A stretch of 64,000 nt of DNA from a virus, in the IMG/VR virus record IMGVR_UViG_3300027782_006229, positions 20,842 through 84,841 of that record; one strand, given 5' to 3'. The notes beneath the pieces were generated by a model. The model had not been told where the DNA came from and ran no database searches. It saw only the letters and a list, made by a program, of their open reading frames with translations. Positions 1,643 to 61,871 of the stretch are shown one piece after another (position 1 is the first letter of the stretch; each line of letters starts with the position of its first letter). The position numbers were made by a program, and so were the translations under genes.

Positions 1643-1670
1643 ATTATAGACGTTTTCCTTATAAAATCAA
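1643..1670 (-). promoter_or_regulatory. sigma70-like early promoter
   Basis: TTGATT-TTATAAGGAAAACGTC-TATAAT, 6 nt before the ATG. Confidence 0.65.
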
Positions 1671-2902
1671 GCTAAAAGAGCTTGAACAGGTTTACCTTTA
1701 TCTGCAACCTTGAATGGTCTGCCTTCTGGTGAGATTACAATTTGATCTACTGGTAATCCTGCTGCAGCTGCAATAGTAGCATTGAAGTCAGATGGGCTAA
1801 CAATGTTTTCAACTGATTTCATACCTTTTTCATCAGATTTACCATATGCTTGACCACCTTTGATACCGGCACCAATGAGTACTCCAGAGAAAGCACCTGG
1901 ATGGTGGTCTCTACCGTTATTAATGTTAATATTTGGTGTTCTACCAAAGTCTGTTGCAATTACAATAAGGGTTTTATCATAAAGCCCAGATGCTTTAAGG
2001 TCTTCAATGAGAGCATTAACAGCTTGATCAAGAATCTTAAGTTTACCTTCAAGAGATTCAAAGTTATTAACGTGAGTATCCCAACCACCATCAGTAACTT
2101 CAATAAACTTACAATTACCTTGTTCAATTAAACGTTTTGCTAAGCAAACACCTTGACCAAAACGATTATTACCGTATTTGTCTCTGGTTACTTGATCTAC
2201 CTTAGAAAGATCGAAGACATCAAGCTCATTTGAATTAAGAAGACGAATTGTTTGGTCATAAAACTCAGCATATGACTTTTGAGCTGGGTTAACAATCTTA
2301 TTAGCATCTTTTTCAAGCTTATCTAAGATTTCAATTCTCTTAGAAAACTCTGCTGCATTTTTAAGCTTAGTATTATCAAGACCTCTCATTGGATCTGCTA
2401 TTGGAATAGGAGAATACTTTTTAGGCATCCAACCAGAACCAGGATGATCAGCACCACCGCCGATTAAAACGTTTTGAGGTACAACTTTTGGTTTATTATC
2501 CTCTGTATAATGACACATCCATGCTCCCATATTAGGGTGAACGATTGTACCAATCTTCTTGAATGATGTTTTTTGTAAATACTGTGCTGCAGCGTGATCA
2601 CCTGTTGTAACCATCATAGAACGAACAACAGCCATCTTATCACCATGTTTTGCCATGAGAGGAAGGTGTTCTGAAATCTGATAACCAGCATTAGTGTTAA
2701 TTGGATTGAATACACCCTTTACTTCTGCATGTGCTTTTGGATCAAATGTATCCAAATGGCTCATACCACCATTCATAAAGAGGTAAATGATATGTTCTGC
2801 TTTTTTACCTGCAGGAGCAGCTGCTACATGTGGTAGAACGGTTACACCTAAGCCTGCTGATGCAAGATTAAGCACGAAATTACGTCTTGTTAAGTTATTC
2901 AT
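1667..2902 (-). CDS. DUF1501 family protein with Tat signal
   Basis: TRRNF twin-arginine leader; GGMSHLDTFDPK, GGWDTH, DFGRTP and GRDHH motifs. Confidence 0.9.
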   Translation of the reverse strand: MNNLTRRNFVLNLASAGLGVTVLPHVAAAPAGKKAEHIIYLFMNGGMSHLDTFDPKAHAEVKGVFNPINTNAGYQISEHLPLMAKHGDKMAVVRSMMVTTGDHAAAQYLQKTSFKKIGTIVHPNMGAWMCHYTEDNKPKVVPQNVLIGGGADHPGSGWMPKKYSPIPIADPMRGLDNTKLKNAAEFSKRIEILDKLEKDANKIVNPAQKSYAEFYDQTIRLLNSNELDVFDLSKVDQVTRDKYGNNRFGQGVCLAKRLIEQGNCKFIEVTDGGWDTHVNNFESLEGKLKILDQAVNALIEDLKASGLYDKTLIVIATDFGRTPNININNGRDHHPGAFSGVLIGAGIKGGQAYGKSDEKGMKSVENIVSPSDFNATIAAAAGLPVDQIVISPEGRPFKVADKGKPVQALLA

Positions 2903-2910
2903 GGCTTTTA

Positions 2911-4698
2911 TTATTTATTGAATTTGAACTCCGAACTATTAACTAGTGCCCAGATGATGTCATCATCCTGAACACCAACAAACTTACTTTTTTCATCAAT
3001 TGTTGGTTTTCTAACCAATATAGACTTAAAAATAACATCAATTGTATCAGCTGGTGATTTGCCTGTAAGTGTTTTTGCAAGATTTGTGTCTTTATTGATT
3101 GCAACTTCAGCTAATTGACCATTCATAAAAGAAATAACTTGTGTAACTGAACCTTCCTTTGAAGATGTATCAATTAATTCTCTATCACTACGACCAAGTT
3201 GTTCAAGAATCGTATTAACTGGATTGTTATCATTAACTTCAGACGCTCTCACTAGAGGGTAGTTACGATATTTTGGAGCTGTTTCATATTTTGAACGAAT
3301 CACCTTTTGATATTCTTCATTTTTAGCTTTTAATTTATCAATTGCCAAATCTTCGATACTATATCTCATTATTTTAACATATTCATCTTGGAAAGTTAAC
3401 TTAAATGTTTCAGGCTTAGCAATAGCGATAGACATAACTGAATCCCACAATTGCTCTGCTGTTAAACGTTGTTTGACTGGTCCAATGAACACAAATTTAT
3501 CTGTATTAGTATACATGCCGTCATAGAGTTCTCTTTGAAACAATGTTGTATTGTAAAGAACATACAGGAATTGCTTAGTATCATAGTTAACGTCTACCAT
3601 AATCTTAGCAAGAGTGTTCATAAGCTCACCATTAAGCTCTTTTTCATCGTGAATATTATCATAGTTATCCATTATATGTTTACCAAACACCCATTTCCAG
3701 TAACGATTAGCAATGTTTTTAGTGAATGTTGGATGATTTGGGTTAACTAACCAGCTAATAACATCCTTTCTCATATCAACCTTATTGTTAATTTCAGTCT
3801 TACCAGAAAGGACTGCAGGTATAACAACATCGCCTGGTTTTGCATCTTTATAATTGTAATCATGAGGTAGTTTCAATACACGCTTTTCATCTACTTCAAT
3901 ATTAGATCTCATAGCATTAACAAAGTTGTTAATAGTATTGTTTAACCCACGGTTCTTTATAGGATCAGCTTTAATTATAGCATCAATTTCTTCTCTCAAA
4001 GCTTTCTGACGAGCTGCTACCGCTGGATCTTTATCTTTACCACGACCTCTAAGTTCTATCTGGGTAAACATAGCAGCCATCTTATAAAACTGCATTTGGG
4101 TGAAGTCTTGGAAAGGATCATCATGGCATTGTGCACAACCAATATCGGTTCCCATGAATACTTTACCTGTACCAATAAGGTTATCTAATGGCATTCCTAA
4201 ATCACGATAGAAGTATCCTGTTGCTGGGTTATCATAATATGAACCTGTTGATGTTAACAGATCTGTAACAAACTTTGAATAAGATTTGTTAGCTGTGATT
4301 GAGTCTTTAACATAATCAATGTAAGGACCACCAGAAAAATTGTTAGTGGTGTTAATTCTATCACGCAATCTTAATGATTCAGCCCAGAAGTTAAACATAT
4401 GTGATGTATAACCTGGATGGTTCATAAGAAACTGTATTAAACCTCGTCTCTTATTAGGGTCTGTTGCTTTATTAAACAAGTCATACTCTTCATAGGTTGG
4501 ATTTCTACCAATTATTGTAAGATACGCTCGTCGTAAAAATTTATCATCATCAATTTTACCAAGTGGTATAACATTAGCTGCTACGTATTGTTTTTGTAAC
4601 ACAGAATCAATATTACTACTGTATGTGTTAAGTTGATCTAAAGTTGCACCAAATGATAGAGCGCAAACACTTACTAATATAGCTATAAGTTTTTTCAT
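2911..4698 (-). CDS. DUF1549/DUF1553 (PSCyt2/PSD1) protein
   Basis: Sec-type leader; FLRRAYLTIIGRNPT, GCAQCHDDPF (CxxCH), RLTAEQLWDS and WALVNSSEF motifs. Confidence 0.9.
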   Translation of the reverse strand: MKKLIAILVSVCALSFGATLDQLNTYSSNIDSVLQKQYVAANVIPLGKIDDDKFLRRAYLTIIGRNPTYEEYDLFNKATDPNKRRGLIQFLMNHPGYTSHMFNFWAESLRLRDRINTTNNFSGGPYIDYVKDSITANKSYSKFVTDLLTSTGSYYDNPATGYFYRDLGMPLDNLIGTGKVFMGTDIGCAQCHDDPFQDFTQMQFYKMAAMFTQIELRGRGKDKDPAVAARQKALREEIDAIIKADPIKNRGLNNTINNFVNAMRSNIEVDEKRVLKLPHDYNYKDAKPGDVVIPAVLSGKTEINNKVDMRKDVISWLVNPNHPTFTKNIANRYWKWVFGKHIMDNYDNIHDEKELNGELMNTLAKIMVDVNYDTKQFLYVLYNTTLFQRELYDGMYTNTDKFVFIGPVKQRLTAEQLWDSVMSIAIAKPETFKLTFQDEYVKIMRYSIEDLAIDKLKAKNEEYQKVIRSKYETAPKYRNYPLVRASEVNDNNPVNTILEQLGRSDRELIDTSSKEGSVTQVISFMNGQLAEVAINKDTNLAKTLTGKSPADTIDVIFKSILVRKPTIDEKSKFVGVQDDDIIWALVNSSEFKFNK

Positions 4699-4710
4699 AG
4701 TAGTCTTTTA

Positions 4711-5004
4711 TTATTTAATAACTTTATTTTTATTATAAAGATATTGTGATTTTAAAAGACTATAAATGTTGTTAGGTAACTTTTCAACTTCTTCGAGTAT
4801 TTTATTTTCAACACCGAAGAAAAACCTATCTTTAGGTACTTCTCTGTTTATATTTTTAGGAATAGAGATGAAATAAAAATTTTTATCATCCTTTTCCATG
4901 TAAACGAACATTTCACCTACATAATGCCCATTCTGAACAGCATATGGTATGCTTTTTTTAGGTTCAGGCTCTCGTTTAAAAATCATCCCCACCATATTTG
5001 TCAT
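4711..5004 (-). CDS. hypothetical protein
   Basis: ORF in operon context. Confidence 0.6.
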   Translation of the reverse strand: MTNMVGMIFKREPEPKKSIPYAVQNGHYVGEMFVYMEKDDKNFYFISIPKNINREVPKDRFFFGVENKILEEVEKLPNNIYSLLKSQYLYNKNKVIK

Positions 5005-5347
5005 TAAATTTACCCATTTGAATTGCGAAAAACTTCATTAGTAATGAATGTAATGCATCTGCATGTATGGGTGTATTACATTTTGTTAAAGCTATAGGTA
5101 CACCTTCACTATTATACCCTAATAACATAAAACAATCAAGAAATTCACTTATTGTACAAACAAGAGCATTATTAATATCTTCAACCCCTTTGTTTTTCTT
5201 TACTTCTTTCAGTTTGTTAGAAAGAATTTCATTTATTAGATTTTTAATATCTATATTCGATTGCACCTTCTCAGTCTCATCTTGAGAAGGTGCTTTGGGA
5301 GTGATTTTTTTCCTTTTATATTTTTTAGGTTCATCACTCATAAACAT
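4976..5347 (-). CDS. hypothetical protein
   Basis: ORF in operon context. Confidence 0.65.
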   Translation of the reverse strand: MFMSDEPKKYKRKKITPKAPSQDETEKVQSNIDIKNLINEILSNKLKEVKKNKGVEDINNALVCTISEFLDCFMLLGYNSEGVPIALTKCNTPIHADALHSLLMKFFAIQMGKFNDKYGGDDF

Positions 5348-5704: not shown

Positions 5705-6415
5705 TTATTGTGTGAGTGATGATAAAATATATCTTAATTTAAGCGGCCCTTGATCAATATCAAATATAAGTACCCCATACTTATTATTGATCGATACACT
5801 TACATTATCTGAATTAATAAGTTTAAAGTTATCAAAGTTAATAGGTATATTTTTAAGTTCATTACCAACTATATTTTTACCTACTTGCAATTGAAATGAA
5901 TCTGTATTATGTCTAGCTTTATCTGTAAGCTCACACTTTACCATACCATCTTCAAGATAAAAATAAATTTTATTAGTTTCGGTAGTAAAAGTAGAAGCTT
6001 TATTAATTTTACTAAAATCCTCTTTTACCAACTCAAAAGTAAAGTCGGTATCAAAGGACATAATCTTTTCAGGTTTAACTGAAGGGGGTGCAATGAAATC
6101 ATCTTCAAAAAGGTGATATTTAAATTTAATTTCTGGGGATTTATACTCCAGGTTATTTTGATTAACCTGGAGTTCAATTTCATCACTATTAATACAGTCT
6201 AAAACTCGATTAAGTTTTTTTAAGTCCGGTATACATAAGGATCTTTCGGATTCATTCGAATGGTTTAGAATCGCGTAAAGGATCAACGTATTGTCCGTCG
6301 ACGTTACTATCGACGATATTTTCTCCTTCTCCACTTTCACTATACACTGATCGTTTATCTTCGCTAGAGACTCTAGAAACTTTTCGATTTGTTGCTTTTT
6401 TAACTTTAACTTCAT
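5705..6415 (-). CDS. gp45: sliding clamp (T4 gp45-like)
   Basis: Size 236 aa, clamp-like pattern (LCIPDLKKL, LRYILS C-terminus), replication synteny. Confidence 0.75.
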   Translation of the reverse strand: MKLKLKKQQIEKFLESLAKINDQCIVKVEKEKISSIVTSTDNTLILYAILNHSNESERSLCIPDLKKLNRVLDCINSDEIELQVNQNNLEYKSPEIKFKYHLFEDDFIAPPSVKPEKIMSFDTDFTFELVKEDFSKINKASTFTTETNKIYFYLEDGMVKCELTDKARHNTDSFQLQVGKNIVGNELKNIPINFDNFKLINSDNVSVSINNKYGVLIFDIDQGPLKLRYILSSLTQ

Positions 6416-6773
6416 ATTGTGTGAATAATTCTACTAACTTACCAAGATTGCTTTCAATACCTTTTAATATAGAAACAATATCTGAATTATCAACTAGTTG
6501 AATAGGTCTAGATTCTTGTGGGTGTTGAATAACATGTGGTAAATTAACAGTATTTGGTGGTAGTTGAGGTGGTGGAGCAAATTGAGGTTGTGGTGGTGGA
6601 GGTGGCTGAGCATTTCTCAACGTACTCTCAAACAACTGCTTAACCTGCTCACTTTGAGGTCTCAAATGAGCTGATTGACCAACTAAATTTTGATCAATTT
6701 TTCTAGCCTCACCATAAACGCTACCCATTAAATTGAGTAGCATTTTTTGTTGTTCAATTGCGTCTGGGTTCAT
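6252..6773 (-). CDS. hypothetical Pro/Gln-rich protein
   Basis: ORF coupled to the gp32 stop; 3' end overlaps gp45. Confidence 0.6.
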   Translation of the reverse strand: MNPDAIEQQKMLLNLMGSVYGEARKIDQNLVGQSAHLRPQSEQVKQLFESTLRNAQPPPPPQPQFAPPPQLPPNTVNLPHVIQHPQESRPIQLVDNSDIVSILKGIESNLGKLVELFTQYEVKVKKATNRKVSRVSSEDKRSVYSESGEGENIVDSNVDGQYVDPLRDSKPFE

Positions 6774-7621
6774 AGATCTTTAAGAAGTTCATCGATATCA
6801 GCATCTTCAATACTAGAAGAATTAACTGATGGTTGCTTAACCTTATTACTAAGCTCTGCAATCGCTTCATCTGCTTCAGGTAATGAAGTTGTAGTTTCAC
6901 GGTCTTCAGCGGTCTTACAATAAAAATGCTCATCAAGCATTTGCTTAAGCTCATCTTCAGTCTTAACCCGGAATACATTTTCAAGGTCATGTGTAGACTC
7001 AAGAACTTCATCTTGCTTGGATTCACTCAAACCAAGATCTTTACCCACAGAAGTAAATCGTGAAGAAGTATATACTGGATAGTCACCTTGCTTTTCAACC
7101 TTAATCTTGAAGTTAACACCTTCTTTAGATAGATCAAAAACTCGCATACCGAACTCTTCAGCTTCATCACCACTAATAGCGCTATTGATAATATTACCAA
7201 GCTGTTTACCATAACGAAGAATTTTTACTTTGCCGTTATTTTCTGGCTTAGACGGATCATCAATTACATAAACATTAGTAAGCCATTGTTCGGCACGACG
7301 AATAGTTTTCATTTTCTCTTTTTCTTCTTCAGTACCGGTACGAAGAACTTTATATCTTTCTTCAGCAATAGGATCACGTTCACCGAATGTAGTAGGTGAA
7401 ATAGCACTTACATACTTACCAGTAGCAAGAGAATTCCAACCATGCGTAAAATGATGAAAAAGAGACTGCTTTGGATTTTTTGTATTAGGTAGAAGCCTTA
7501 CTGTATAGGTATTACCAGGTTTAAGTTGCATAATATCTTGCAAACTTCCTTGCTTATTATCTTGCGAAGTTAAAGCTTCTTTAATGGAATCGAACATTGA
7601 CGTTAGGTTATATTTACTCAT
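6770..7621 (-). CDS. gp32: single-stranded DNA-binding protein (T4 gp32-like)
   Basis: VRLLP, NVYVIDDP-PENNGKVKILRYGK, Y-SSRF, acidic tail. Confidence 0.9.
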   Translation of the reverse strand: MSKYNLTSMFDSIKEALTSQDNKQGSLQDIMQLKPGNTYTVRLLPNTKNPKQSLFHHFTHGWNSLATGKYVSAISPTTFGERDPIAEERYKVLRTGTEEEKEKMKTIRRAEQWLTNVYVIDDPSKPENNGKVKILRYGKQLGNIINSAISGDEAEEFGMRVFDLSKEGVNFKIKVEKQGDYPVYTSSRFTSVGKDLGLSESKQDEVLESTHDLENVFRVKTEDELKQMLDEHFYCKTAEDRETTTSLPEADEAIAELSNKVKQPSVNSSSIEDADIDELLKDL

Positions 7622-8923: not shown

Positions 8924-10243
8924 TCAACTCGCAAACATACTCAATGAACTTAACATTTCACTTTCCATACCACCTGTTTGGCCATCTGCTTCTGAAATAG
9001 TTAAAGTTGAATAATCTATTTTCATTGATGTAGTTGTTCCACGTGCTCCAAATCGGTTTTTCATCATACCCATTTTAATAATCTCTAGTTCTCTATCTTC
9101 ATCATTCTGGAAGATAGAAACAATAACATCTGCAGTAGCTGCAAGACCGATAGACTCACTAATAGTATTAAGATCAGGGTTAGAAACATCAAATCCTGAA
9201 CGATTAAGCTGGGTTGCACTAATAACAGGACAGCTAAAGATGTATGACATAGCACGAACCTGCTCAGTTACATGTTTAATACGTTCATAACTGTTATTAC
9301 CCATTGGAGAATGTAGTAGATTCAAGTAATCTAACACAATAGCATCAATTTTAATACCTTTATCTTCAATTTTTTTAATGAAAGCTTGAATCTGCCTTGG
9401 AGTCATTGTTGCAGGAGGAAATTCTTTGATAAGAATCTTACCACCTGGCTTATTTTTCTTAATATCTTCAATGGCTGCTTTAAGAGATCCAGTCTCTAAA
9501 TGAAGAGTCTTCATTGGAATCTTACTTACATTAGTACAAATACGTTTCGCATACAATATTTCAGGCATTTCTAACGTAATTAACAGTACAGTTTTATTCT
9601 GATCTGCTATATTAGCTGCAATATTGCCGAGAAAAATAGATTTACCAATATTAGTCTCACCTGCAAAGACATATAAAGCTCGACCATCTCTCATAAAGCC
9701 CCCACCAATATAATCATCCAACCAAGGCCATGTACTTGGAATAGTTTCCTGTACATCCTGGATTTGCTTGATTACATTATCAATATCTGCATACAAGTCT
9801 AATCCAACATCAGTCTGCAAAGATATATTACAGCTTTTTTCAAATTTATCAAGAATTGCAGAGGTATCAGCCTTATTACTTGAAATATCAGCAGCAACCT
9901 CAAGTAAAGTACTAAAAACAGCCTTCTCTTTTAAAAATTGCTCGGTATTTTCATACAATTCATCTTCGTTGAAGCTTTTATCAAGGCTTTGAAAGCTGGT
10001 AAGCACGTTTTTAAATGATGATCTACTTACTTCATCACCACAATACTGCTTTATTTCCGTTAAATTAGGTAATTCATTGCGAACATCATAAAATCCTTTG
10101 ATAATCTCAAATATTTTTTTATTATCTCTGTTTTTAAAATAATCTGATTTGGTGTAATCAATAGTAGTTGCAAGATATCGTTTATCTGTACAGCATTTAT
10201 ACAAAAAGATATTCTCAAAAAAGTCCAAGTCTAATTTTAACAT
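8924..10243 (-). CDS. gp41: replicative DnaB-type helicase (T4 gp41)
   Basis: GETNIGKS Walker A; ITLEM, VLDYL, ATQLNR and KNRFG motifs. Confidence 0.95.
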   Translation of the reverse strand: MLKLDLDFFENIFLYKCCTDKRYLATTIDYTKSDYFKNRDNKKIFEIIKGFYDVRNELPNLTEIKQYCGDEVSRSSFKNVLTSFQSLDKSFNEDELYENTEQFLKEKAVFSTLLEVAADISSNKADTSAILDKFEKSCNISLQTDVGLDLYADIDNVIKQIQDVQETIPSTWPWLDDYIGGGFMRDGRALYVFAGETNIGKSIFLGNIAANIADQNKTVLLITLEMPEILYAKRICTNVSKIPMKTLHLETGSLKAAIEDIKKNKPGGKILIKEFPPATMTPRQIQAFIKKIEDKGIKIDAIVLDYLNLLHSPMGNNSYERIKHVTEQVRAMSYIFSCPVISATQLNRSGFDVSNPDLNTISESIGLAATADVIVSIFQNDEDRELEIIKMGMMKNRFGARGTTTSMKIDYSTLTISEADGQTGGMESEMLSSLSMFAS

Positions 10244-10310: not shown

Positions 10311-10316
10311 TAAATA
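10311..10316 (+). promoter_or_regulatory. T4-type late promoter core TAAATA
   Basis: TATTAAATA 5 nt upstream of the DUF1501 ATG. Confidence 0.65.
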
Positions 10317-10321
10317 ACCAT

Positions 10322-11578
10322 ATGAATAGACGTGAATTTATACGAGTTGGTGCTGCTGGTTCGATGTTATTGCCTGATTTTTTAAGAGCTCAATCACAAA
10401 ACAAAGCAAAAGCAACATCAGTTGTACAGATTTATTTGCCAGGTGGTATGAGTCATCAAGATTCATGGGATTACAAGCCATTTGCACCATCTGAATATAG
10501 AGGACCATTTGATCCAATTAAAACAAAAATTGACGATGTGACTTTTGGGTCACTTCTTAAAGAAACTGCTAAGATTAGTGATAATTTAACTGTTATCCGT
10601 TCAATGACACATGGCGAAGCTGCTCATGAGCGTGGAACACATAATATGTTGACTGGTTATAAGCCATCACCAGCACTAAGCTACCCATCTTTTGGTAGTG
10701 TTATTAGTCATGAATTAGGAAATCGCAACAATTTACCAGCATACGTTCTTGTTCCAAACCAATTTGCACCAGAAAATGGTACAGGTTATCTATCAACAAA
10801 ATATGGAGCATTTTCTCTAGGTTCTAACCCAGAAGATCCAGGATTTGCTGTTAAAGATCTCAATTCACCTGCAGGTATTAATGATAAAGCATTTGATAGA
10901 CGTCGTAACCTACTTGGTGCTGTTGATGAACACTTTAAAACCCGTGAATCTAATGTAGATGCTGTTAAAGCAATGGATTCGTTTTATAATGATGCATATG
11001 CAATGATGTCGTCAACACAAGCACGTGAAGCGTTTGAGTTATCAAAAGAACCAGATGTGGTAAAAGATGCATATGGTCGTAATGCAGCTGGGCAACGGCT
11101 GTTATTATCTCGTAGATTGATTGAAGCTGGTGTAAGAATGGTTACAGTAACGTATGGTTCATGGGATCACCACTCAAATCTTAAAGGATCATATGAGCAA
11201 AACATGATTAACTTTGATAGAGCCTTTGCTGCATTCATTACAGACCTTAAACAACGTGGTTTACTTAGCTCTACACTGGTAATGGTAACATCTGAATTTG
11301 GTAGAACACCAAAAATTAACGCAACTAATGGTAGAGATCATTGGCCAAGAGTATTTTCAACAGTACTAGCAGGTGGTGGTGTCAAATCCGGATATGCTTA
11401 TGGTACATCCGATGCTTTAGCTTCAGAACCAGATAATAATCCAGTAACTCCTGGTCAACTAGCTGCTACAATGTATAGTTTAATAGGTGTTTCACCAAGA
11501 AAGAAGCTAATGACACCAGATTTAAGACCGATTGAAGTCGTTTATAACGATTCACCAATTGAAGATATCTTAGTTTGA
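10322..11578 (+). CDS. DUF1501 family protein with Tat signal (second copy)
   Basis: MNRREF leader; GGMSHQDSWDYKP, WDHH, EFGRTP and GRDHW motifs. Confidence 0.9.
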   Translation: MNRREFIRVGAAGSMLLPDFLRAQSQNKAKATSVVQIYLPGGMSHQDSWDYKPFAPSEYRGPFDPIKTKIDDVTFGSLLKETAKISDNLTVIRSMTHGEAAHERGTHNMLTGYKPSPALSYPSFGSVISHELGNRNNLPAYVLVPNQFAPENGTGYLSTKYGAFSLGSNPEDPGFAVKDLNSPAGINDKAFDRRRNLLGAVDEHFKTRESNVDAVKAMDSFYNDAYAMMSSTQAREAFELSKEPDVVKDAYGRNAAGQRLLLSRRLIEAGVRMVTVTYGSWDHHSNLKGSYEQNMINFDRAFAAFITDLKQRGLLSSTLVMVTSEFGRTPKINATNGRDHWPRVFSTVLAGGGVKSGYAYGTSDALASEPDNNPVTPGQLAATMYSLIGVSPRKKLMTPDLRPIEVVYNDSPIEDILV

Positions 11579-12214
11579 CCACTTATTCAAGAACCATTCT
11601 TGACCATTATTCCACTCATCTGTAAATTCTTTCAATCCAGGTGACGCATGAGTGATAGTTATATCACCTACACCGATTTTAAAGCCAGCTTTATGGCAAG
11701 CCATTGAAAAGTCTAGGTCATAAAAGTGAAACCCAGCAGGATTTGTTTCATCAAACCTTACTTTTTGTAATACTTCTGTTTTAACAGCCATAAACACACC
11801 ATCAATTAGTATAACACGATCAGGATAACTACCAAAACTGGTCATAAACTTGGTACCTGTAGGTTCACATAGATGAGCTACAGCTCCTCTATGATGTTTT
11901 CTATTACTCATTAGATGCCATAATGCTGGTTTCTGTAATTTTGCTTCTCTTGTTCCTGCTAGCCCTACAACATCAAAGTTTGTTCCAAGATTATAGAGTT
12001 GCCTTTCAATTGCTTCAGGTGCTTCTATAATAACATCATCATGTACGAATACAATCCAGTCTGATAATATAAAATCGTCAATAGCATCATTATAGACAAT
12101 AGGTAAAGGGTCTGTATTGTTTGCTGCCCAAGATACATCATATATATCTTTTGTGCTGCGATATAGTAAAGTTGATTTTGGATCACCTTTGGTTGCTGAT
12201 ACGAATTTTATCAT
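11570..12214 (-). CDS. GT-A fold glycosyltransferase-like protein
   Basis: FVHDDV DxD-type motif; IDGVFMA and FHFYDLDF motifs. Confidence 0.8.
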   Translation of the reverse strand: MIKFVSATKGDPKSTLLYRSTKDIYDVSWAANNTDPLPIVYNDAIDDFILSDWIVFVHDDVIIEAPEAIERQLYNLGTNFDVVGLAGTREAKLQKPALWHLMSNRKHHRGAVAHLCEPTGTKFMTSFGSYPDRVILIDGVFMAVKTEVLQKVRFDETNPAGFHFYDLDFSMACHKAGFKIGVGDITITHASPGLKEFTDEWNNGQEWFLNKWSN

Positions 12215-12912
12215 ATAATTAAGAATGGGGAGTTAGGTTTGAATTTACCAACTTCTTTAAATTTATACTCTTTTGTAAGTTTAACAACCTTTCCTTCAGG
12301 TAATTCAACCCAACCCTTTCCTTTAATAGACGAATAACTACCATTATCATTAATATAGAGGGTACTACCTTGTCTTACTAGGTAGACGTTAAGGGATGTA
12401 GTGTTAACAATACAGAGAGCAAACGTCCCATTAAGTCTCTCGCATATCGTTTCAATTATTTTAACTTCATCAGTAGAAGAAGATCGAGATTTATTACCTT
12501 TGAGCTCATTCCATTTTTCTTGAATCATACACACAATAACAGATGTATCTACAGGATTTTCATTCCAATTACAATATTGTTCATTCAAACTTTCATGATT
12601 TGTTAAAACACCATTATGAAACACAAGCCAATCTTCTTGCTCAAATGGATGTGATGTATCATAGTTATATTTTCTTACTGAAGATGTTGGAGCTTGTACA
12701 TGCCCCATATAGTAAGCATGGTTTTTAGGTTTGAGCTTTTGCTTTTCGAAGTTAATATAACCTTCCTGCTTTAAAATACTTACATCGTCAACATTACCAG
12801 CTGGTGCTTTCATCAGCGTTAGTAATGACGATGCAAAGTTTCCACGAGCTTTATTAGCTTCATATAAAACTTCAAACATTGATTGATCGGCTGAACCGAA
12901 TATAGAACACAT
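12211..12912 (-). CDS. class II (Ntn) glutamine amidotransferase domain protein
   Basis: N-terminal Cys (MCSIFG); RG, HPF, HNGVLTN and VDT motifs. Confidence 0.85.
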   Translation of the reverse strand: MCSIFGSADQSMFEVLYEANKARGNFASSLLTLMKAPAGNVDDVSILKQEGYINFEKQKLKPKNHAYYMGHVQAPTSSVRKYNYDTSHPFEQEDWLVFHNGVLTNHESLNEQYCNWNENPVDTSVIVCMIQEKWNELKGNKSRSSSTDEVKIIETICERLNGTFALCIVNTTSLNVYLVRQGSTLYINDNGSYSSIKGKGWVELPEGKVVKLTKEYKFKEVGKFKPNSPFLII

Positions 12913-12960
12913 AATATATTAAATATAGACGTTAATACACAAAAAACAATAAATAATTTT

Positions 12961-14013
12961 ATGAATTTTAATTCTCTCGTTACCAAACTAGAAATCCTTG
13001 AAGAAGCTAAAACTGGCCGCTTTGAAAAGCTCTTCCAAACAGGCTACCTTAAAAAAGCTATTGAAGATAAAAAACTTGGTACAGCAAGACCGTTAATGTT
13101 TGAATTTATTATTAACTTTTTGAAAGAGAAGGGTGTAGTACCAGATGAAACATATTTTAAAGGTTCACGCGCTGCTGCTGACGCAGGTGAATTTATTAAA
13201 AATCTTATTGATACAGGTTTACTTAAAGATGAAATTGCTGATGAATTCAACGAGTATATAAAAACTAATTTAGGTGACTGGATTGGACTTAAAGTGAGAT
13301 CTTTACGTGAACGCGGTAAAGGACAAAATCGTGGTAAAACATTCGGATCTGCTGAAGAATTTAACGCATTTAAAAATGTTAAAACCAAAGAAGAAATGGA
13401 TGCTGAAAAGCAAGCTGCAAAAGATAAAAAACAAGCTGCAGCTGACGATACATCACCGATAGCCCCTTATGAGTTTACCGATTATTTAGTTAATATAGTA
13501 TCTAAGGTACCTCTAGATATTAAACTAGTAGCTAGAATTTTAACAGCTGCAAGTAATGGTAAATCAGTTAATGTGGATGATACTAGCACACCTACTAATA
13601 TTGATATATCTTTAGATCCTGAATCAGCAATTGTAGATAAGGTTAAAAAGAACGGTGCAGATGCAACAGCTGACTCACTTTTAAAAGTATTGCCGAAATA
13701 TTTAAAAGTTGATGCTGAAGATATGGAAATTTTTATAAGCTCACCACATACAATGGATATTGAATCTGAGTTTGAATCTAAAAAACCAAAAACTAAAGCT
13801 CAACGAACTGGTGTTGATTTACAAGGTTATGGAATGGGTACTATTGCTCCAGATGACTCTGAGAGACGTCTTGCAAACCCATTTGAAGATGAGGAAGTCC
13901 TTGTTCAAAATGAAAACCACAAACCAAAAGTGACATTCATTTCAACCAAGGACCGTTTTAAGCCAGCAAATTCCTGGCAACAAGCTGCTAGAGCGGAGAT
14001 GTTTTACAAATAA
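12961..14013 (+). CDS. late hypothetical protein, probably virion-associated
   Basis: TAAATA at 12950; N-terminus MNFNSLVTKLEILEE. Confidence 0.6.
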   Translation: MNFNSLVTKLEILEEAKTGRFEKLFQTGYLKKAIEDKKLGTARPLMFEFIINFLKEKGVVPDETYFKGSRAAADAGEFIKNLIDTGLLKDEIADEFNEYIKTNLGDWIGLKVRSLRERGKGQNRGKTFGSAEEFNAFKNVKTKEEMDAEKQAAKDKKQAAADDTSPIAPYEFTDYLVNIVSKVPLDIKLVARILTAASNGKSVNVDDTSTPTNIDISLDPESAIVDKVKKNGADATADSLLKVLPKYLKVDAEDMEIFISSPHTMDIESEFESKKPKTKAQRTGVDLQGYGMGTIAPDDSERRLANPFEDEEVLVQNENHKPKVTFISTKDRFKPANSWQQAARAEMFYK

Positions 14014-14741
14014 GTCTCATAAGGGATTTTTTTGCAGTTATGCTTAACCCATACAGACGATAAGTCTTGTTTATATTCGATTGGATCAATATAACCTGCT
14101 GAAACAAATCCAGCTAACCTTAAACTACTAGAAGGTGAATAAGCATCTGCTTTATCTTCACCTGCATAGCAAGTCCAAGTATCGCTAAACTTCACACCAA
14201 GTCTAATACCCTCTTCAATAATCTCTTTTTTAGACATTGTAATTAGAGGAGCTTCAACTTTAATGCGATGCTCTCGATTTAAGTCAGCAACTGCATTGAT
14301 TGCATCTAGAAACTCAGGGCTTCCATCCCAATAACCTGCTAATGAATCAACTTGAGCTGCTCCATACCAAACTGTGCTCGCTCCAACTCCTTCTGCATAT
14401 GATAGAAGGTAAGTAATAAAAAGCATATTACGGAATGCAACGTAGCTTTTCGGTTGAGCCTCACCTCTCATCTCTCTAACGTCTGGTGTATCAATATCTA
14501 GATTAGTTAGAGAAGAAGTTGGTGCTAATACATCTAGTGGTGTATTAATAATTTTCATTTTGATAATTTTCTTATGACCTACACGGCGTATAAGTTGTTT
14601 ATGAGCGCAATCTAGTTCTTTTTTATGTCTTTGACCATAATCAAAAAATAAACAATAAATTTCATCAAACTGTTCAATCGCTTTTTGAAGTAGGACAGAA
14701 GAATCCATACCACCAGAGAATGCTAATACTATTTTCGACAT
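14004..14741 (-). CDS. queC: 7-cyano-7-deazaguanine synthase
   Basis: SGGMDS PP-loop; DYGQRH, YVAFRN, APL and TWTCY motifs; the later Zn-binding cysteines are replaced. Confidence 0.9.
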   Translation of the reverse strand: MSKIVLAFSGGMDSSVLLQKAIEQFDEIYCLFFDYGQRHKKELDCAHKQLIRRVGHKKIIKMKIINTPLDVLAPTSSLTNLDIDTPDVREMRGEAQPKSYVAFRNMLFITYLLSYAEGVGASTVWYGAAQVDSLAGYWDGSPEFLDAINAVADLNREHRIKVEAPLITMSKKEIIEEGIRLGVKFSDTWTCYAGEDKADAYSPSSSLRLAGFVSAGYIDPIEYKQDLSSVWVKHNCKKIPYETYL

Positions 14742-15014: not shown

Positions 15015-15704
15015 TTACAAATATAATATATTGTTGGTTGTTTTCAACTTATAAGGTGAAAGTGAAAAATACCGACATGCATCAGCTATACAATTAAAAA
15101 TTTTACCATCTATTGATATTTTTTTTGCATTTGAATTATTACTACCACTATTACTACCTCGTTCTTTAGCTGTAGCAGCAGCTTTAGCTGCACCTTGTTT
15201 ATATTCTTCTTTGGTCCTTGTCGCTTTTTTTCTTTTGTTTATTTCTTCTAAATAATTTTCACCGTAAATTTCTTTATAGGTTTTACCTTTCTTTGCATTT
15301 GGGTTATTACTATAGAATTCTAATAAACCATCAGAAATCTTTTTTCTATTTTCAGGACGCTTTGATGGGTTATTTTCACCTCTTTGTGATTCATATATAG
15401 CATCTAATAGCTTTTTATCTATTATAGAGTTTTTAGCTAAAAGCTTTGCGGATCTTAAATTTGATATAAACTCATATGAACCCTCATCAAAACATTTTGC
15501 CATTAATAAGTGTGCTTGTACGTGGTCTTCAACAGACAGCTCGACTGTAGCTTCGGATAAATTACAGTCGAGCTTAAGAAATCGTGGATAGATATGATGT
15601 GTATGTAATACTAAATTAGAGTTGTAAATTTTTGTTTTGCAATTTTTTATGAACTGTAAATATTTTTGATATTCTATAACCCACAATAAATTAGTTTTAT
15701 TCAT
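15015..15704 (-). mobile_element. free-standing HNH homing endonuclease with NUMOD-like C-terminus
   Basis: HTHHIYPR...L..EDHVQAHLL; GENNP and IDGKIFNCIADA motifs; TATAAATA just upstream of ATG 15704. Confidence 0.75.
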
Positions 15705-15766
15705 ACAACTATTTATAGCGTCGTGGTGTGTTTCACCACGGAGCACTAAAATATAGCATTTTGATA

Positions 15767-16894: not shown

Positions 16895-16929
16895 AAGTCT
16901 ATTATAATCTATATTTTACATTTATCCAC

Positions 16930-16964
16930 AAAAAACCCCTCTGAGATAATTATCTCAGAGGGGT
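16930..16964 (-). terminator. rho-independent terminator (perfect 30-bp palindrome plus U tract)
   Basis: ACCCCTCTGAGATAATTATCTCAGAGGGGT followed by a T run on the minus strand. Confidence 0.85.
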
Positions 16965-22965: not shown

Positions 22966-24017
22966 ACTGTAGTGCACTTACCATAAAGGTTAAGAGTATA
23001 ATCTAATATAAATTTTTTATCTTCAATATCCAGTAAATTAATAAATTCTTCAATTGCATTAGGTATATTAATACTATCAGATAAAGCATCCGATAAGAAC
23101 GTATCTTTTGTGATTAGTTTGTTGTAATCAAAATCATACTCCACAGTAAAACTTGCTGGTTTAAGTTGTAGTAGTTTACTATGCAAAAAATCCATATCTT
23201 CAGAACTAATATTTTTATCAACCTTTAGTTTTACAAAATTACTATTGAAGGTAGTTCTAATATAGTTATCAATAGTACCAGCATTAACCATTTCACTCAA
23301 AGATAGTTTTTTATATTTTGGTGAAATGTTATTATGAATAAACTGTAACTCGGTAGTTTCAATATTAAGGATGTAATAACCTTTATCGTTACCACAATCA
23401 CCGAAATCCATCTCAAAAGGATTACCTGTATAAAGGATATTACCTGCTCCAAAATTGCGTTCATGTCTTGTATGAAAGTGACCTGAAATAATAAGATTAA
23501 ACTTACGTAATAAATCACTAGCTTTCATACCTTCATCGCAATCTTTCATTGAATTCATTTTAAAAGATTCAATTTCGAGATGTCCGAATAATATATCACC
23601 GTTAGGTACATCATTTACAGAAAACCCCCAAGGTAAAAATGCTAATGTTTTATCAAAACGTTCTAAGACGAATGGTTTGTCAATAACATTTACATTTTCT
23701 TTACCTTTCACAATATTAAGTGAATGTACATCAGTTCGATGCTTAAAATACATATCATGGTTACCAGTTATTACAGTGAGATTAAACTCACTCAATAATT
23801 TAAACACTTCAGCTGATACTGTTAATGTATCAACAGAAATTTCACTTCTATTATGATACCAATCACCACAAAATATAATATCTTTGATATTATTACGTTT
23901 TAAATCTTCAACGAACCAACGACACCAATTTAATGCAATATCATGCCATTGGTTAGAATTACCATGAACACCTAAATGAAGATCTGAAAAGATTGCTACT
24001 CTTGGCTTATTGATCAT
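22962..24017 (-). CDS. gp47: SbcD/Mre11-like nuclease (T4 gp47)
   Basis: SDLHLG, GD, GNHD, GH and SGHFH motifs. Confidence 0.95.
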   Translation of the reverse strand: MINKPRVAIFSDLHLGVHGNSNQWHDIALNWCRWFVEDLKRNNIKDIIFCGDWYHNRSEISVDTLTVSAEVFKLLSEFNLTVITGNHDMYFKHRTDVHSLNIVKGKENVNVIDKPFVLERFDKTLAFLPWGFSVNDVPNGDILFGHLEIESFKMNSMKDCDEGMKASDLLRKFNLIISGHFHTRHERNFGAGNILYTGNPFEMDFGDCGNDKGYYILNIETTELQFIHNNISPKYKKLSLSEMVNAGTIDNYIRTTFNSNFVKLKVDKNISSEDMDFLHSKLLQLKPASFTVEYDFDYNKLITKDTFLSDALSDSINIPNAIEEFINLLDIEDKKFILDYTLNLYGKCTTV

Positions 24018-24465
24018 TTTCGTTATAATAAGAATCCATATCGTCGTTATCATTTTCAGGTTTTACATATATGTAACTCGACATTTCTGGATCAGTCATC
24101 ATAGATTCATACACTTGAGACTTGTAATTAGTGATAGTTTGATGATGTTTCTGCTCTTTCTTAATCCTATTAATGAAAGCATGAAATGCAATAGTGGTAA
24201 AATACGAGAAAGGGTTAGAACCAGACGCAAAATTATACTTTTTATTCTTTACAGCACTGTACATCTTGATGAGAGCATCACCTATCATGTCATCCTTATA
24301 GGTATAATTGATAAAATTGGGTAAATAGCTAAGGCCTGTTGCAATTTTCTTGATATACACACCTAATATCTCTGTCATTACATCAGAGTCGTAATACTTT
24401 TGAAGTTCTCTTTTGAAATCATCAGAGTTTACGTAGTGTTCTTTCTTTTCTTTTTTGGAACTCAT
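24007..24465 (-). CDS. gp55: late-transcription sigma factor (T4 gp55)
   Basis: HYVN, NFINYTYKDDMIGD and NPFSYFTTIAFHAFINRIKKE motifs. Confidence 0.95.
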   Translation of the reverse strand: MSSKKEKKEHYVNSDDFKRELQKYYDSDVMTEILGVYIKKIATGLSYLPNFINYTYKDDMIGDALIKMYSAVKNKKYNFASGSNPFSYFTTIAFHAFINRIKKEQKHHQTITNYKSQVYESMMTDPEMSSYIYVKPENDNDDMDSYYNENDQ

Positions 24466-24494
24466 AGCTTAATATACGATAGGTTTATAATAAA

Positions 24495-25910
24495 TCAAGG
24501 TTCTCTAATATTTTTTTCAACAAACTGTATTTTTTCTCGTTGATAAATGTCTTTTCTTGCATCTCCATGGTCAGAACCATAACGAAGGTTGTCAATTAAA
24601 TCAAAAATATACAATTTATTCTTGGAAGGGTGTAGTCGCAAGCCACGACCAATGGACTGAACTGTACGAATGAAGGCTTTACCACCGGCCGCAAACATGA
24701 TCATGTGTAAATTCTTGATATTTACACCTGTTGAAAAGATAGAACTGAGGGCTATACACACAACATCATCATGTTTTTCAATGATTTCCTTAATTCTTTC
24801 CCGTTCCCCCACCTCAACTTTCCCTTGAATAAAGAAAACCTTTTTGGAAATACCTTGGAATTTTTCCATTAGAATTTCCCCATGCCGAATATGGTTGATG
24901 AGAATGAGGATATTTTTAGGAAATTTGGTTGCAATTTCCTTAATTGTGTTGTTCCTAAATTCTGATTCGTAAAGGAAATCTAGTTCCGCACGATAATTCA
25001 TTTTAGGAACAGGCTTGTAATGTAAGTTTACACACTTAACATCCACGTTTGTAAGGAAATTTTCCTGTCTTAAATCATAAGAATTCTTTTCAAATATGAC
25101 TGGACCAAGTTTTCCAAGTACAGACCACCTATCTCCACTCTTATCAGGTAATGTTCCTGTAAAACCATACTTGTGTGGTGTTTTGATCTTGGAAATAATC
25201 TTTCCTGTAACTTCTGCCTTTCCTTTATGACACTCATCAACGATCAACAGATCTACATGTTCCAGCCACTTGTTTTCCTCAAATTTACTTTGTAAAATAC
25301 CAAGATTGACTACAAACACGTTAGATGTTAAATCAGGTAAATGTTTTCCTGTCCATTTAGTTGTTTTGAAAGAAATACCATATGATAGGAAATCATTGTA
25401 TGTTTGAGTAACTAAACCAAGATCAGGTACAACTACAAGACATTTAAACGTGTTTTTATTAGGGGAATTTAAGTAATAATTTTCTACTAAAGTTGCAGTC
25501 GTTATGGTTTTACCTGCACCTGTTCCCATTAAGCATATACCACGACCATACTTTAAAGCTAGTTTAACTGCATCTTCCTGATACTCTCTTAGGGTGTTAC
25601 CATCAGCTTTTAAATTGTTATAGAACTTTGAATCGTACTGTTTACCTAGATAATCTGATAATTCTTTCGTGATGCAAGATTCAGGTGCAATAATATTACA
25701 CTCATGAAGATATTTGTTTATCTCCCAAAATAACCCCATCTCACATTGACCGGTGGGTGTAATATAATACTTACGACTAGGCATGAATCTATTCTTTCTT
25801 TTCATAAAAGAATGACCTTCATACGGACAACTAAAATGTTCTCTTACCTGATTGAATAAACTAGTTTCACATTGAAAAATAAGCTTATGACCTTTAATAT
25901 CAAATTTCAT
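24495..25910 (-). CDS. uvsW: SF2 helicase UvsW
   Basis: LREYQ, TGAGKT, DECH, GFTGT and QSIGRGLR motifs. Confidence 0.95.
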   Translation of the reverse strand: MKFDIKGHKLIFQCETSLFNQVREHFSCPYEGHSFMKRKNRFMPSRKYYITPTGQCEMGLFWEINKYLHECNIIAPESCITKELSDYLGKQYDSKFYNNLKADGNTLREYQEDAVKLALKYGRGICLMGTGAGKTITTATLVENYYLNSPNKNTFKCLVVVPDLGLVTQTYNDFLSYGISFKTTKWTGKHLPDLTSNVFVVNLGILQSKFEENKWLEHVDLLIVDECHKGKAEVTGKIISKIKTPHKYGFTGTLPDKSGDRWSVLGKLGPVIFEKNSYDLRQENFLTNVDVKCVNLHYKPVPKMNYRAELDFLYESEFRNNTIKEIATKFPKNILILINHIRHGEILMEKFQGISKKVFFIQGKVEVGERERIKEIIEKHDDVVCIALSSIFSTGVNIKNLHMIMFAAGGKAFIRTVQSIGRGLRLHPSKNKLYIFDLIDNLRYGSDHGDARKDIYQREKIQFVEKNIREP

Positions 25911-26302: not shown

Positions 26303-26328
26303 ATCTAATTATAAATACTAATATCGAA

Positions 26329-26574
26329 ATGTCAACTTTCAAAAATATTTTTTTATCCCTTATAGAAGAAGATAATGTAGCTGGAGGAGCTAGCTCTGTC
26401 TTCGGTGGTGCAGTTGATAAAGACGGTGGTATCTATAATCCTAATGAAGGTAGATATACATCAAATGATTCTATCTATGCACCAGGTGATGCTAGAGTGC
26501 CTAAAGCTTTGAGTGGAGTACAACGCAGAAGTGGTATAAGTAAGAAGAGACGCAAAAAGCGTAAAACTAAATGA
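26329..26574 (+). CDS. late hypothetical protein with basic C-terminus
   Basis: TATAAATA at about 26309; MSTFKNIFLSLIEE N-terminus. Confidence 0.7.
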   Translation: MSTFKNIFLSLIEEDNVAGGASSVFGGAVDKDGGIYNPNEGRYTSNDSIYAPGDARVPKALSGVQRRSGISKKRRKKRKTK

Positions 26575-40567: not shown

Positions 40568-41179
40568 CTAAACCAAAGATCTACTACCTTGAGCAAATTC
40601 AATAAATTTATAAAATTCATTTCTACTATTATCACCCGTCTCATGGAATGAACCAGACATACGAGCTGTACGCATAGTTGAATTTTGTTTAATACCTCTC
40701 AAAGAACAACAAGTATGATTTGCTTCAACCATAATTGCAACACCTTTATTATTAATACATAAATCACTAATATATTTGTGAATACTCATCGTTAAATTTT
40801 CTTGTACAGAAGGTCTGCGTGAAAAATAATCAACAATACGATTTAGTTTAGATAAACCAATTACTTTACCATCTGGATCTGGTAGATAAGCTACGTGAGC
40901 ATATCCAAAGAAAGGTAAGTTATGATGTGCACACATACTCACAACAGGTATATTAGTTTGACATACCATACCATCATATTGACCATCATTAGTAAATGCA
41001 GTAATTTTAGGTTCATCCATAAAGCAACCTGCTGCTAGATCGTTAACCCATGCTTTAGTAACTCGACGAGGTGTATCTTCCATATGCGGATGATTTTGCC
41101 AATCGAAGCCAAGTGCACTTAGAAATTGACCGTAAGCTTGCTCTGCTTGTTTAATATCATATTTTTGACTCATATTCAC
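40568..41179 (-). CDS. folE: GTP cyclohydrolase I
   Basis: DTPRRV, SMCAHHNLPF, GLSKLNR, QE and HTCCSLRG motifs. Confidence 0.95.
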   Translation of the reverse strand: MNMSQKYDIKQAEQAYGQFLSALGFDWQNHPHMEDTPRRVTKAWVNDLAAGCFMDEPKITAFTNDGQYDGMVCQTNIPVVSMCAHHNLPFFGYAHVAYLPDPDGKVIGLSKLNRIVDYFSRRPSVQENLTMSIHKYISDLCINNKGVAIMVEANHTCCSLRGIKQNSTMRTARMSGSFHETGDNSRNEFYKFIEFAQGSRSLV

Positions 41180-41327
41180 TATATTATGGCTTATTAATTA
41201 CAATATTCAAGATAAAAATAATAAAAAAATAGTCAGTTGATTTTTGATCTCATACCATATTAAATAAAGTCATAACATCTAATAAAAAAAAAGTTGAAAA
41301 GATAAAAATACCAGCTATAATAAATGT

Positions 41328-57515: not shown

Positions 57516-57532
57516 GTTAAATATATAATAAT

Positions 57533-59308: not shown

Positions 59309-59317
59309 ATAACATAA

Positions 59318-60463: not shown

Positions 60464-60915
60464 TGATGAAGAAAAATTCAAAATATACTCAAGGTGTTTT
60501 CATACCAAAAAATATAAACAAGTTTATTGGTACTAAGGCATTTTATAGATCGTCTTTAGAATTACGATTTATGAAGTTCTGCGATTTTAATGAAAATGTA
60601 TTAAAGTGGGGATCTGAAAATATTATCATTCCATATTTGAATCCATTAGATGGTAAAATGCATCGATACTTTGTAGATAATTTTGTGCAAATAAAAGAGG
60701 GTAGTGGTAAGATAAAAAGGTATCTTGTGGAGATAAAACCATCTGGTCAACTACTACCACCTAAAACCAATTATCGTAAGAAATCTAATCTGATTTACGA
60801 ACAAACGATGTATATAACTAACCAAGCTAAATGGCAAGCAGCTCGTGAATGGTGCAATAAAAAGGACCTAGAGTTTATTATTATCACAGAAAAACACTTA
60901 ACAGTAAATAAATAA
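60463..60915 (+). CDS. gp4: head completion nuclease (T4 gp4-like)
   Basis: YRSS.E, WGSE, HRYFVD, EIKP, NQAKW and ITE motifs. Confidence 0.92.
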   Translation: MMKKNSKYTQGVFIPKNINKFIGTKAFYRSSLELRFMKFCDFNENVLKWGSENIIIPYLNPLDGKMHRYFVDNFVQIKEGSGKIKRYLVEIKPSGQLLPPKTNYRKKSNLIYEQTMYITNQAKWQAAREWCNKKDLEFIIITEKHLTVNK

Positions 60916-60919
60916 GTAT

Positions 60920-61582: not shown

Positions 61583-61590
61583 ATAACTAT

Positions 61591-61866: not shown

Positions 61867-61871
61867 AATTT

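Follow-up and report, generated by a model that had tools for sequence, protein, structure and literature searches.

Introduction

The DUF1501, PSCyt2 (DUF1549) and PSD1 (DUF1553) protein families are among the most expanded in Planctomycetes and Verrucomicrobia, and the papers searched gave no function for them. The PSCyt and PSD1 domains were named by Studholme et al. 2004, as cited in PMC3542564. In the parts of PMC3542564 and PMC5615132 available to us, the function is called unknown, and electron transport or carbohydrate-related roles are suggested. According to the available part of PMC3542564, modules of DUF1501 and PSCyt/PSD1 genes occur in Planctomycetes, Verrucomicrobia and Lentisphaerae (PVC modules, for Planctomycetes-Verrucomicrobia-Chlamydiae), the twin-arginine leader is frequent in the DUF1501 family, and the most complex arrangement is a four-gene cluster (Kamneva et al. 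2012). Here we describe a phage-borne version of this system in a window of 64,000 nucleotides (nt), bases 20842-84841 of the 84,841-bp IMG/VR viral contig IMGVR_UViG_3300027782_006229. The window is DNA of an uncultured freshwater T4-like myophage with 33% GC. It carries a PSCyt2/PSD1 gene, an adjoining DUF1501 gene (DUF1501a) and a second DUF1501 gene (DUF1501b).

The phage genes resembled the PVC modules, as presented in the available part of PMC3542564, in their Pfam families, gene adjacency, twin-arginine translocation (Tat) and Sec leaders and CxxCH motif, and DUF1501b was the orthologue of the DUF1501 protein in the four-gene cluster. Unlike the PVC modules, they were phage-encoded at phage base composition; the PSCyt2/PSD1 protein had 595 amino acids (aa) and lacked PSCyt1, Big_2, WD40 and carbohydrate-binding domains, and the a-type pair fell in phage-associated clades without a named cellular member. 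DUF1501b also differed from its counterpart in the four-gene cluster in being encoded without the three partners.

Cyanophage phoA, pstS and psbA are phage auxiliary metabolic genes for exported or membrane functions of the host. The three genes are like these in that they are host-derived, intact and under purifying selection, with a patchy distribution and mobility among the T4-like phages of a single habitat. They are unlike them in pairing a putatively Tat-exported enzyme with a Sec-exported partner, and in having no carrier among 50,697 GenBank phage records. In the sources searched, the families and host-derived accessory phage genes are known, whereas the phage-borne form appears to be undescribed, as do its mobility, spread and link to Verrucomicrobiales. 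An earlier note on this DNA had reported the gene pair; the observation was confirmed, and its interpretation was partly supported and extended by the second DUF1501 gene, mobility, spread and the absence of a PSCyt1 domain.

The PSCyt2/PSD1 and DUF1501 genes

The PSCyt2/PSD1 gene occupied 2911..4698 on the minus strand, and the open reading frame (ORF), Pfam matches, alignment and ratio of nonsynonymous to synonymous substitutions (dN/dS) pointed to an exported 595-aa protein without PSCyt1. PSCyt2 (PF07583) was matched over profile positions 1-208 of 209 (E 1.1e-34; 120.7 bits, cut-off 29.8) and was followed by PSD1 (PF07587; E 7.6e-25; 88.2 bits, cut-off 28.5). The codons for CAQCH (residues 188-192) lay at 4123..4137 on the minus strand. 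In an alignment of 42 sequences with a mean column identity of 60%, C188, C191 and H192 were invariant in 42/42 homologues, and each row had a single CxxCH. The only other cysteine was C12 in the leader, leaving none in the mature protein beyond CAQCH. Approximately 23 codons at 4630..4698 (minus strand) encoded a putative Sec-type signal peptide; the N-terminus, MKKLIAILVSVCALSFGA, was Sec-like, and 36 of the 42 homologues passed a crude charge-plus-hydrophobic-run test. PSCyt1 (PF07635) was absent from the protein by Pfam and from all four phage records searched, while the positive control, the Verrucomicrobiales genome G007, gave 72 matches.

DUF1501a (1667..2902, minus strand) lay 8 nt downstream of the PSCyt2/PSD1 stop codon and encoded a Tat-signalled 'a'-type protein of 411 aa, which matched Pfam DUF1501 (PF07394) over profile positions 1-390 of 390 (E 3.1e-97). 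Its putative twin-arginine leader (TRRNFV...; 2813..2902, minus strand) began with MNNLTRRNFV, and R6, R7 and F9 were kept in at least 90% of alignment rows; RRx[FL] was present within the first 25 aa in 40/45 rows. DUF1501b (10322..11578, plus strand), identified by Pfam and sequence comparison, encoded a 'b'-type protein of 418 aa with the Tat motif NRREFI. It was 33% identical to DUF1501a, and its gene lay between those for a helicase and a glycosyltransferase. Both proteins matched PF07394 over its full length, with scores of 326.7 and 364.3 bits (cut-off 27). The alignment of 45 DUF1501 sequences had 34 invariant columns, including H49, D54, D275, H277, D332 and H333, and the family's own conserved motifs were GGMSHxD, GGWDTH and GRDHH. 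ORFs, Pfam matches and leader motifs thus agreed with the earlier description of an intact Sec-signalled DUF1549/1553 protein with CAQCH followed by a Tat-signalled DUF1501 protein. Searches of PHROGs, PADLOC and NCBIfam with the three proteins yielded a single match, of 16.7 bits, to LtaS; PADLOC returned 0 families at E 0.01 or better, and no PHROG family matched the PSCyt2/PSD1 protein or DUF1501a.

Phage origin and purifying selection

When IMG/VR was scanned with the PSCyt2/PSD1 protein, 28 stretches matched, and 23 of them encoded a relative, representing 19 distinct loci with 62-98% identity. The gene was full length in 15 of the 19 loci and cut by contig ends in the remaining four. The synteny of the window was repeated in 8 IMG/VR loci from 7 metagenome ids, with the shared order helicase, o229, gp32, gp45, three small ORFs, PSCyt2/PSD1, DUF1501, exonuclease and primase. 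Two complete genomes with direct terminal repeats, G005 (184,542 bp) and G001 (224,703 bp), each had exactly two DUF1501 matches and a PSCyt2/PSD1 gene. An identical contig from a DNA run of another sample covered 4501-5132, the junction with the upstream phage ORF. The DNA occurred in metagenomes of 18 studies, nearly all of them freshwater samples, and in many its share was small. A further IMG/VR scan based on the exonuclease found 3 close relatives, all with the genes, plus 11 loci at 28-36%.

GC content at third codon positions (GC3) was 0.17-0.23 in the three genes and 0.19-0.27 in seven phage core genes, bearing out the phage-like, AT-rich codon use noted earlier; three fetched cellular loci around the Verrucomicrobiales b-type orthologue had a GC content of 0.54-0.60. 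The dN/dS was 0.05-0.13 for PSCyt2/PSD1 (4 pairs), 0.04-0.11 for DUF1501a (7 pairs) and 0.06-0.19 for DUF1501b (5 orthologous pairs). The overall range of 0.04-0.19 (16 orthologous pairs) was like that of replication genes (0.03-0.19; 12 pairs). Two rows pairing the b type with a-type paralogues (L005 and L017) were left out of this set, and the synonymous rate (dS) was saturated in four rows, namely three PSCyt2/PSD1 pairs and the left-out L017 row.

Recurrent synteny, the complete genomes and dN/dS together show that the three are real, intact phage genes under purifying selection. They derive from PVC bacteria, in keeping with the earlier proposal that a phage had domesticated a host module. 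An assembly chimera, host contamination or a decaying passenger gene is a practically negligible explanation. The families are otherwise cellular, and the source contig is a fragment, approximately 40% complete by CheckV. However, one gene order recurred in eight contigs, two carriers were complete terminal-repeat genomes, and a contig spanned the junction; GC3 was phage-like against the higher GC of the cellular loci. The best cellular identity was only 38% for PSCyt2/PSD1, about 50% for the a type and 64% for the b type. Decay in related phages was likewise contradicted by the low dN/dS and by the full-length copies.

In the probable source run, 3091-3389 of the PSCyt2/PSD1 gene was covered by two contig variants of 299 nt; one was identical and the other showed 20 differences, indicating co-occurring strains.

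Mobility and spread among phages

G001 had all twelve homologues of the replication block, QueC through primase, arranged as in the window and 33-56% identical. In this genome, neither insertion site was occupied: the glycosyltransferase gene ended 26 nt before the helicase gene, and o97 abutted the exonuclease gene. The G001 copies instead stood in the order DUF1501b, a 272-aa ORF, PSCyt2/PSD1 and DUF1501a, directly upstream of the gp15, portal, protease and capsid genes. The three genes were 79%, 81% and 88% identical to the window copies, against 59% identity of the portal proteins. When the window was compared with L005, dS was 0.21-0.34 in the pair and 1.0-2.4 in flanking core genes. Further genomic contexts were found, for example in L015-L017 and L150/L151. 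The low identity and high dS of core genes beside closely similar accessory genes indicate that the three genes have been exchanged among distantly related, co-occurring aquatic phages.

With the DUF1501 alignment as query, 351 stretches of IMG/VR were matched, of which 330 encoded a relative. All 79 newly fetched DUF1501 loci had a GC content of 0.29-0.44, and most also carried a PSCyt2/PSD1 gene. Their identity to DUF1501a fell into three groups, 70-100%, 46-50% and 39-44%. A T4-type portal was present in two large carriers of the 46-50% group and absent from three 205-222 kb carriers of the 39-44% group. In L190 (204,906 bp, without a T4-type portal and with a DnaE-type polymerase), a 680-aa PSCyt2/PSD1 protein and a DUF1501 were encoded inside the replication block, flanked by DnaB, primase and a PD-(D/E)XK nuclease on one side and by RNase T and the DnaE-type polymerase on the other. 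In a quick tree, phage DUF1501 sequences formed at least three separate clades among cellular ones, a topology of several separate captures of the gene set by phages.

By tblastn, the PSCyt2/PSD1 and DUF1501 proteins were not found in the 50,697 GenBank phage records, with near-identical records possibly outside this search. Literature searches likewise found no characterised phage version of the DUF1501/PSCyt2 genes, in line with the earlier note, which had known of none. The absence from GenBank phages set against 330 carrying stretches in IMG/VR points to accessory content that is missed by phages of easily grown hosts. A mention of DUF1501 in a Pseudomonas phage paper proved to be a weak CDD note on a 61-aa ORF and was irrelevant.

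In class-B phages, the 272-aa ORF between DUF1501b and PSCyt2/PSD1 (L006:7177-7995) had a sub-threshold match to FMN_red (23 bits, cut-off 24); it had no homologue in the window.

Cellular relatives and host

Among 185,579 species genomes, the best 80 loci for PSCyt2/PSD1 belonged to Verrucomicrobiota (46), Planctomycetota (32), Bacteroidota (1) and an unnamed lineage (1), with 29-38% identity. DUF1501 was found within 3 kb in 75 of these 80 loci. The nearest named proteins to DUF1501a were planctomycetal, with 46-49% identity.

DUF1501b gave a narrower signal. Each of five Verrucomicrobiales genomes had one orthologue, with 58-61% identity compared with at most 46% for other paralogues. Per Verrucomicrobiales genome, 37 to 160 first-look DUF1501 candidates were present. 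Orthologues (56-64%) were found in 53/81 Verrucomicrobiales genomes but in only 2/121 genomes sampled across the phylum, and in 15/121 Planctomycetota at 50-57%. In a careful tree, 14 phage rows made up the main b clade (support 100/99), which joined seven Verrucomicrobiales sequences at 100/99, and a second phage b lineage (L185 and L204) joined other Verrucomicrobiales at 99/96; Planctomycetota lay outside both. From this tree and the distribution of orthologues, Verrucomicrobiales is most likely the donor of DUF1501b and, by inference, the host. A PVC host had been suggested before; it is still the best inference, and DUF1501b narrows it to Verrucomicrobiales. The many tRNA genes in a phage of 33% GC would fit a GC-richer host.

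In G007, the DUF1501b orthologue stood in a cluster of PSCyt1-WD40, DUF1501, a PPC protein and PSCyt1-Big_2-PSCyt2-PSD1, which is exactly the 'most complex four-gene cluster' given in the available part of PMC3542564. A PPC homologue lay beside the DUF1501b orthologue in two further genomes (L129 and L124). When the cluster partners of G007 were compared with the window by tblastn, no PPC or WD40 protein was found, and the one match, at 26% identity, was between the PSCyt2-PSD1 part and the 595-aa gene of the phage itself.

On the basis of the gene trees, Verrucomicrobiales can be proposed, as a testable assignment, as hosts of the abundant, uncultured T4-like phages of fresh water. The only phage-host link that we saw in print for such phages is a T4-like phage in a Verrucomicrobia single-cell genome, in the available part of PMC4611503.

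Promoters and expression

A candidate T4-type late promoter core, TAAATAATAAAAG, lay at 4705..4717 (minus strand), 6 nt before the PSCyt2/PSD1 ATG, with TAAATA at 4712-4717. The identical 13-mer lay at 2905..2917 (minus strand), 2 nt before the DUF1501a ATG, with TAAATA at 2912-2917, and occurred nowhere else in the window. TAAATA was also present before DUF1501b (10311..10316, plus strand; 11 nt before the ATG).

T4 late promoters have the sequence TATAAATA and are read by gp55 with gp33 and the gp45 clamp, which is the co-activator of late transcription. The phage was similar in encoding a gp55-like late sigma factor (24007..24465, minus strand; phrog_234, E 1.7e-27), adjoining the gp47/gp46 homologues, and a gp45-like sliding clamp (5705..6415, minus strand; phrog_223, E 3.2e-15), and in having TAAATA shortly before structural genes as well as before the three genes. 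It differed from T4 in that the core was mostly TAAATAA, lay only 5-19 nt before the ATG, and the full TATAAATA was not enriched in the window (11 found, 14 expected).

The hexamer alone was no evidence, as it was under-represented overall (96 in the window compared with 149 expected from shuffles). Its placement was more informative. TAAATA lay within 30 nt upstream on the sense strand in 17/83 ORFs, while the reverse complement did so in only 2/83, and it preceded 4 of 6 annotated structural genes and none of 10 replication genes (one-sided Fisher p 0.008). A TAAATA-type motif stood before PSCyt2/PSD1 in 16 of 19 related loci, where the DNA was non-coding and the contexts differed, and the full TATAAATA did so in two of them, L020 and L023. 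In L015-L017, only TAAAATA was found before PSCyt2/PSD1, and the motif before DUF1501a was lost. The DUF1501a motif overlaps the final codons and stop codon of the gene upstream, where conservation is confounded by coding sequence, and DUF1501a may be co-transcribed with PSCyt2/PSD1. Strand specificity, placement before structural genes, conservation in relatives and the gp55-like factor make late expression of the three genes from TAAATA promoters plausible. The earlier claim of late promoters therefore stood as far as the motifs at 2912-2917 and 4712-4717 and their placement beyond chance are concerned; late expression itself is plausible only.

In two lake metatranscriptome runs from different studies, contigs of 200-540 nt with at least 99% identity lay inside the PSCyt2/PSD1 gene, and binned depth extended to replication genes nearby and to parts of the two DUF1501 genes. 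Bins without cover by RNA contigs (e.g., 2137-2670) were uninformative. Three 'skips' in run X1 were single low-depth contigs with short sides and were left uninterpreted.

A PhoH-like gene (41966-42742) had TAAATA 11 nt before its ATG, as in structural genes. Many early and replication genes on both strands had, by eye, TTGA-N17-TATAAT-like promoters with the -10 box ending approximately 6 nt before the ATG (e.g., 1637-1676, 16895-16934, 24466-24505 and 26303-26342), which implies leaderless or near-leaderless mRNAs without a Shine-Dalgarno sequence for these genes. The regular expression TTGA-N-TAnnnT was too strict (5 ORFs, compared with more by eye), and no count was drawn from it.

Fold and proposed function

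When the DUF1501 profile was aligned by hhalign with 11 sulfatases, a probability of 95.6% and an E-value of 1.1e-8 were obtained over the C-terminal half of the catalytic core, a likeness to the S1 sulfatases and the alkaline-phosphatase superfamily, to whose clan DUF1501 presumably belongs. Three of 14 sulfatase ORFs lacked CxPxR, were probably mis-extracted and were left out of the 11-row run. A PDB profile search with DUF1501 gave weak sulfatase matches (E 0.004), a single-sequence search gave E 0.05 or worse, and sub-threshold Pfam matches included Sulfatase (20.4 bits, cut-off 25) and Phosphodiest. Unlike the S1 formylglycine sulfatases, DUF1501 had no conserved C/S-x-P-x-R, a motif found in 2/45 rows at unrelated positions. 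No structural relative of the PSCyt2/PSD1 protein was detectable by sequence; the PDB search gave nothing with the single sequence and a chance-level citrate synthase (E 0.5) with the profile. ESM Atlas feature matches for the PSCyt2/PSD1 and DUF1501 sequences were 0.76-0.82, below a meaningful level.

By analogy with known auxiliary genes, we tentatively regard the three genes as an auxiliary module of the periplasm made up of an enzyme and its partner, in which the b copy would serve a host complex as a spare subunit, a reading that we prefer while holding it to be not quite probable. In an infected Verrucomicrobiales-like cell, the gp55-like sigma factor would direct transcription of the three genes from late-type promoters, and the host Sec and Tat systems would carry the products to the periplasm. 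DUF1501 would be a folded, cofactor-loaded enzyme of the alkaline-phosphatase/sulfatase superfamily without the formylglycine motif, and with its CxxCH-bearing PSCyt2/PSD1 partner would act there on an esterified or otherwise modified organic substrate. As the orthologue of the putative catalytic subunit in the host four-gene cluster, DUF1501b would plug into host-encoded partners, topping up or replacing a limiting host subunit, for which cyanophage psbA is the analogy. Scavenging or processing of periplasmic substrates for phage production could then continue after host gene expression fails. It is possible, but doubtful, that many large uncultured aquatic phages carry in this way a stripped-down, self-contained form of the largest orphan protein system in PVC bacteria plus a spare catalytic subunit that docks, psbA-like, into the host four-gene complex.

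Several points weigh against the proposed periplasmic module. No activity was found for any DUF1501, PSCyt2 or PSD1 member in the papers searched, so that the term 'auxiliary metabolic' is used by analogy. The hhalign alignment was unstable in its N-terminal half between the runs with 14 and with 11 sulfatase rows, and therefore no nucleophile or metal ligands were assigned to DUF1501. The host comes from gene trees only. The a-type clade had no named cellular sequence and contained metagenome proteins (P0054, P0069, P0081 and others) unclassed as to phage or cell origin. The RNA evidence consists of contigs, which give no ends, strand or level and for this reason leave DNA carry-over possible, and neighbouring genes were covered too. 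Finally, a role in the envelope or in lysis would agree equally well with the late-type promoter and with the neighbouring head and tail genes seen in other phages.

Such a role, in which the pair and the extra DUF1501 would modify or degrade a periplasmic or envelope polymer late in infection, for lysis and release or to block superinfection through an altered receptor, is unlikely but deserves weight. All three genes bear the late-type motif common to structural genes; the cluster of class-B phages is followed directly, on the same strand, by gp15, portal, protease and capsid genes; and the alkaline-phosphatase superfamily includes envelope-modifying enzymes, with lipoteichoic acid synthase among the weak matches. 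Against this, there was no similarity to known lysis or exclusion proteins and no PADLOC match at the threshold given above, the motif was shared with PhoH, which is not an envelope gene, and the phage of L190 has the pair inside its replication block. The orthology of DUF1501b to a subunit of a conserved, housekeeping-like host cluster also speaks against an envelope role. We consider a redox module quite improbable. Here the PSCyt2 CxxCH would bind haem c after Sec export and exchange electrons with the Tat-exported DUF1501, supporting the energy or redox balance of the host. The three invariant CxxCH residues, with the sole cysteines of the mature protein, would suit such a role. Sec export is compatible with cytochrome c maturation, and Tat export suits a cofactor-bearing partner. 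Electron transport is moreover proposed in the available part of PMC3542564. However, the cytochrome-c-like PSCyt1 domain was missing from the protein and from 4/4 phage records, although the same search readily found it in the Verrucomicrobiales genome; haem binding by PSCyt2 was not shown in any paper found, and DUF1501 resembles hydrolases rather than oxidoreductases.

A decoy or counter-defence role, with phage copies mimicking abundant host periplasmic proteins and so titrating a host factor or sensor, is very improbable; the genes are host-derived and host paralogues are numerous, as the candidate counts per Verrucomicrobiales genome illustrate, but conservation over the whole length, with 34 invariant columns in the DUF1501 alignment, fits catalysis rather than mimicry, PADLOC gave no defence-related match, and we know of no periplasmic sensor of such a kind.

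A conserved three-gene phage version argues for the importance of the system within the short infection window, because phages keep only what pays. The phage set would also provide a small, portable version of an orphan family to express, to analyse for haem and metals and to screen against substrates. If a stripped-down system with a docking subunit is true, the phage copies would define the minimal working unit as PSCyt2/PSD1 plus DUF1501 without PSCyt1, and a whole clade of freshwater T4-like phages would be marked as Verrucomicrobiales viruses.

Neighbouring genes

The window further encoded a 5'-3' exonuclease (770-1636), a gp32-like ssDNA-binding protein (6770-7621), a DnaB-like helicase (8924-10243), a UvsX-like recombinase, a gp43-like DNA polymerase and gp46/gp47 homologues, a gp15, portal, protease, scaffold and capsid block (56382-63999) and 23 tRNA genes. 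Genes for 7-deazaguanine (queuosine-type) synthesis, comprising a glycosyltransferase, a class-II amidotransferase, QueC, GTP cyclohydrolase and a QueD-like protein, lay at 11570-14741 and 40568-42002, which suggests that the DNA bases may be modified. A 350-aa acidic ORF at 12961-14013 had a late-type motif and no match in Pfam, PHROGs, PADLOC or NCBIfam. A protein with an I-TevI-type DNA-binding domain, likely a homing endonuclease, was encoded at 15015-15746, adjoining the UvsX-like gene, with the full TATAAATA upstream. In the relative L010 (1718-3691), the DnaB-like helicase gene was split by approximately 730 nt (between residues 365 and 364-420), suggesting a possible intein or homing-endonuclease insertion.

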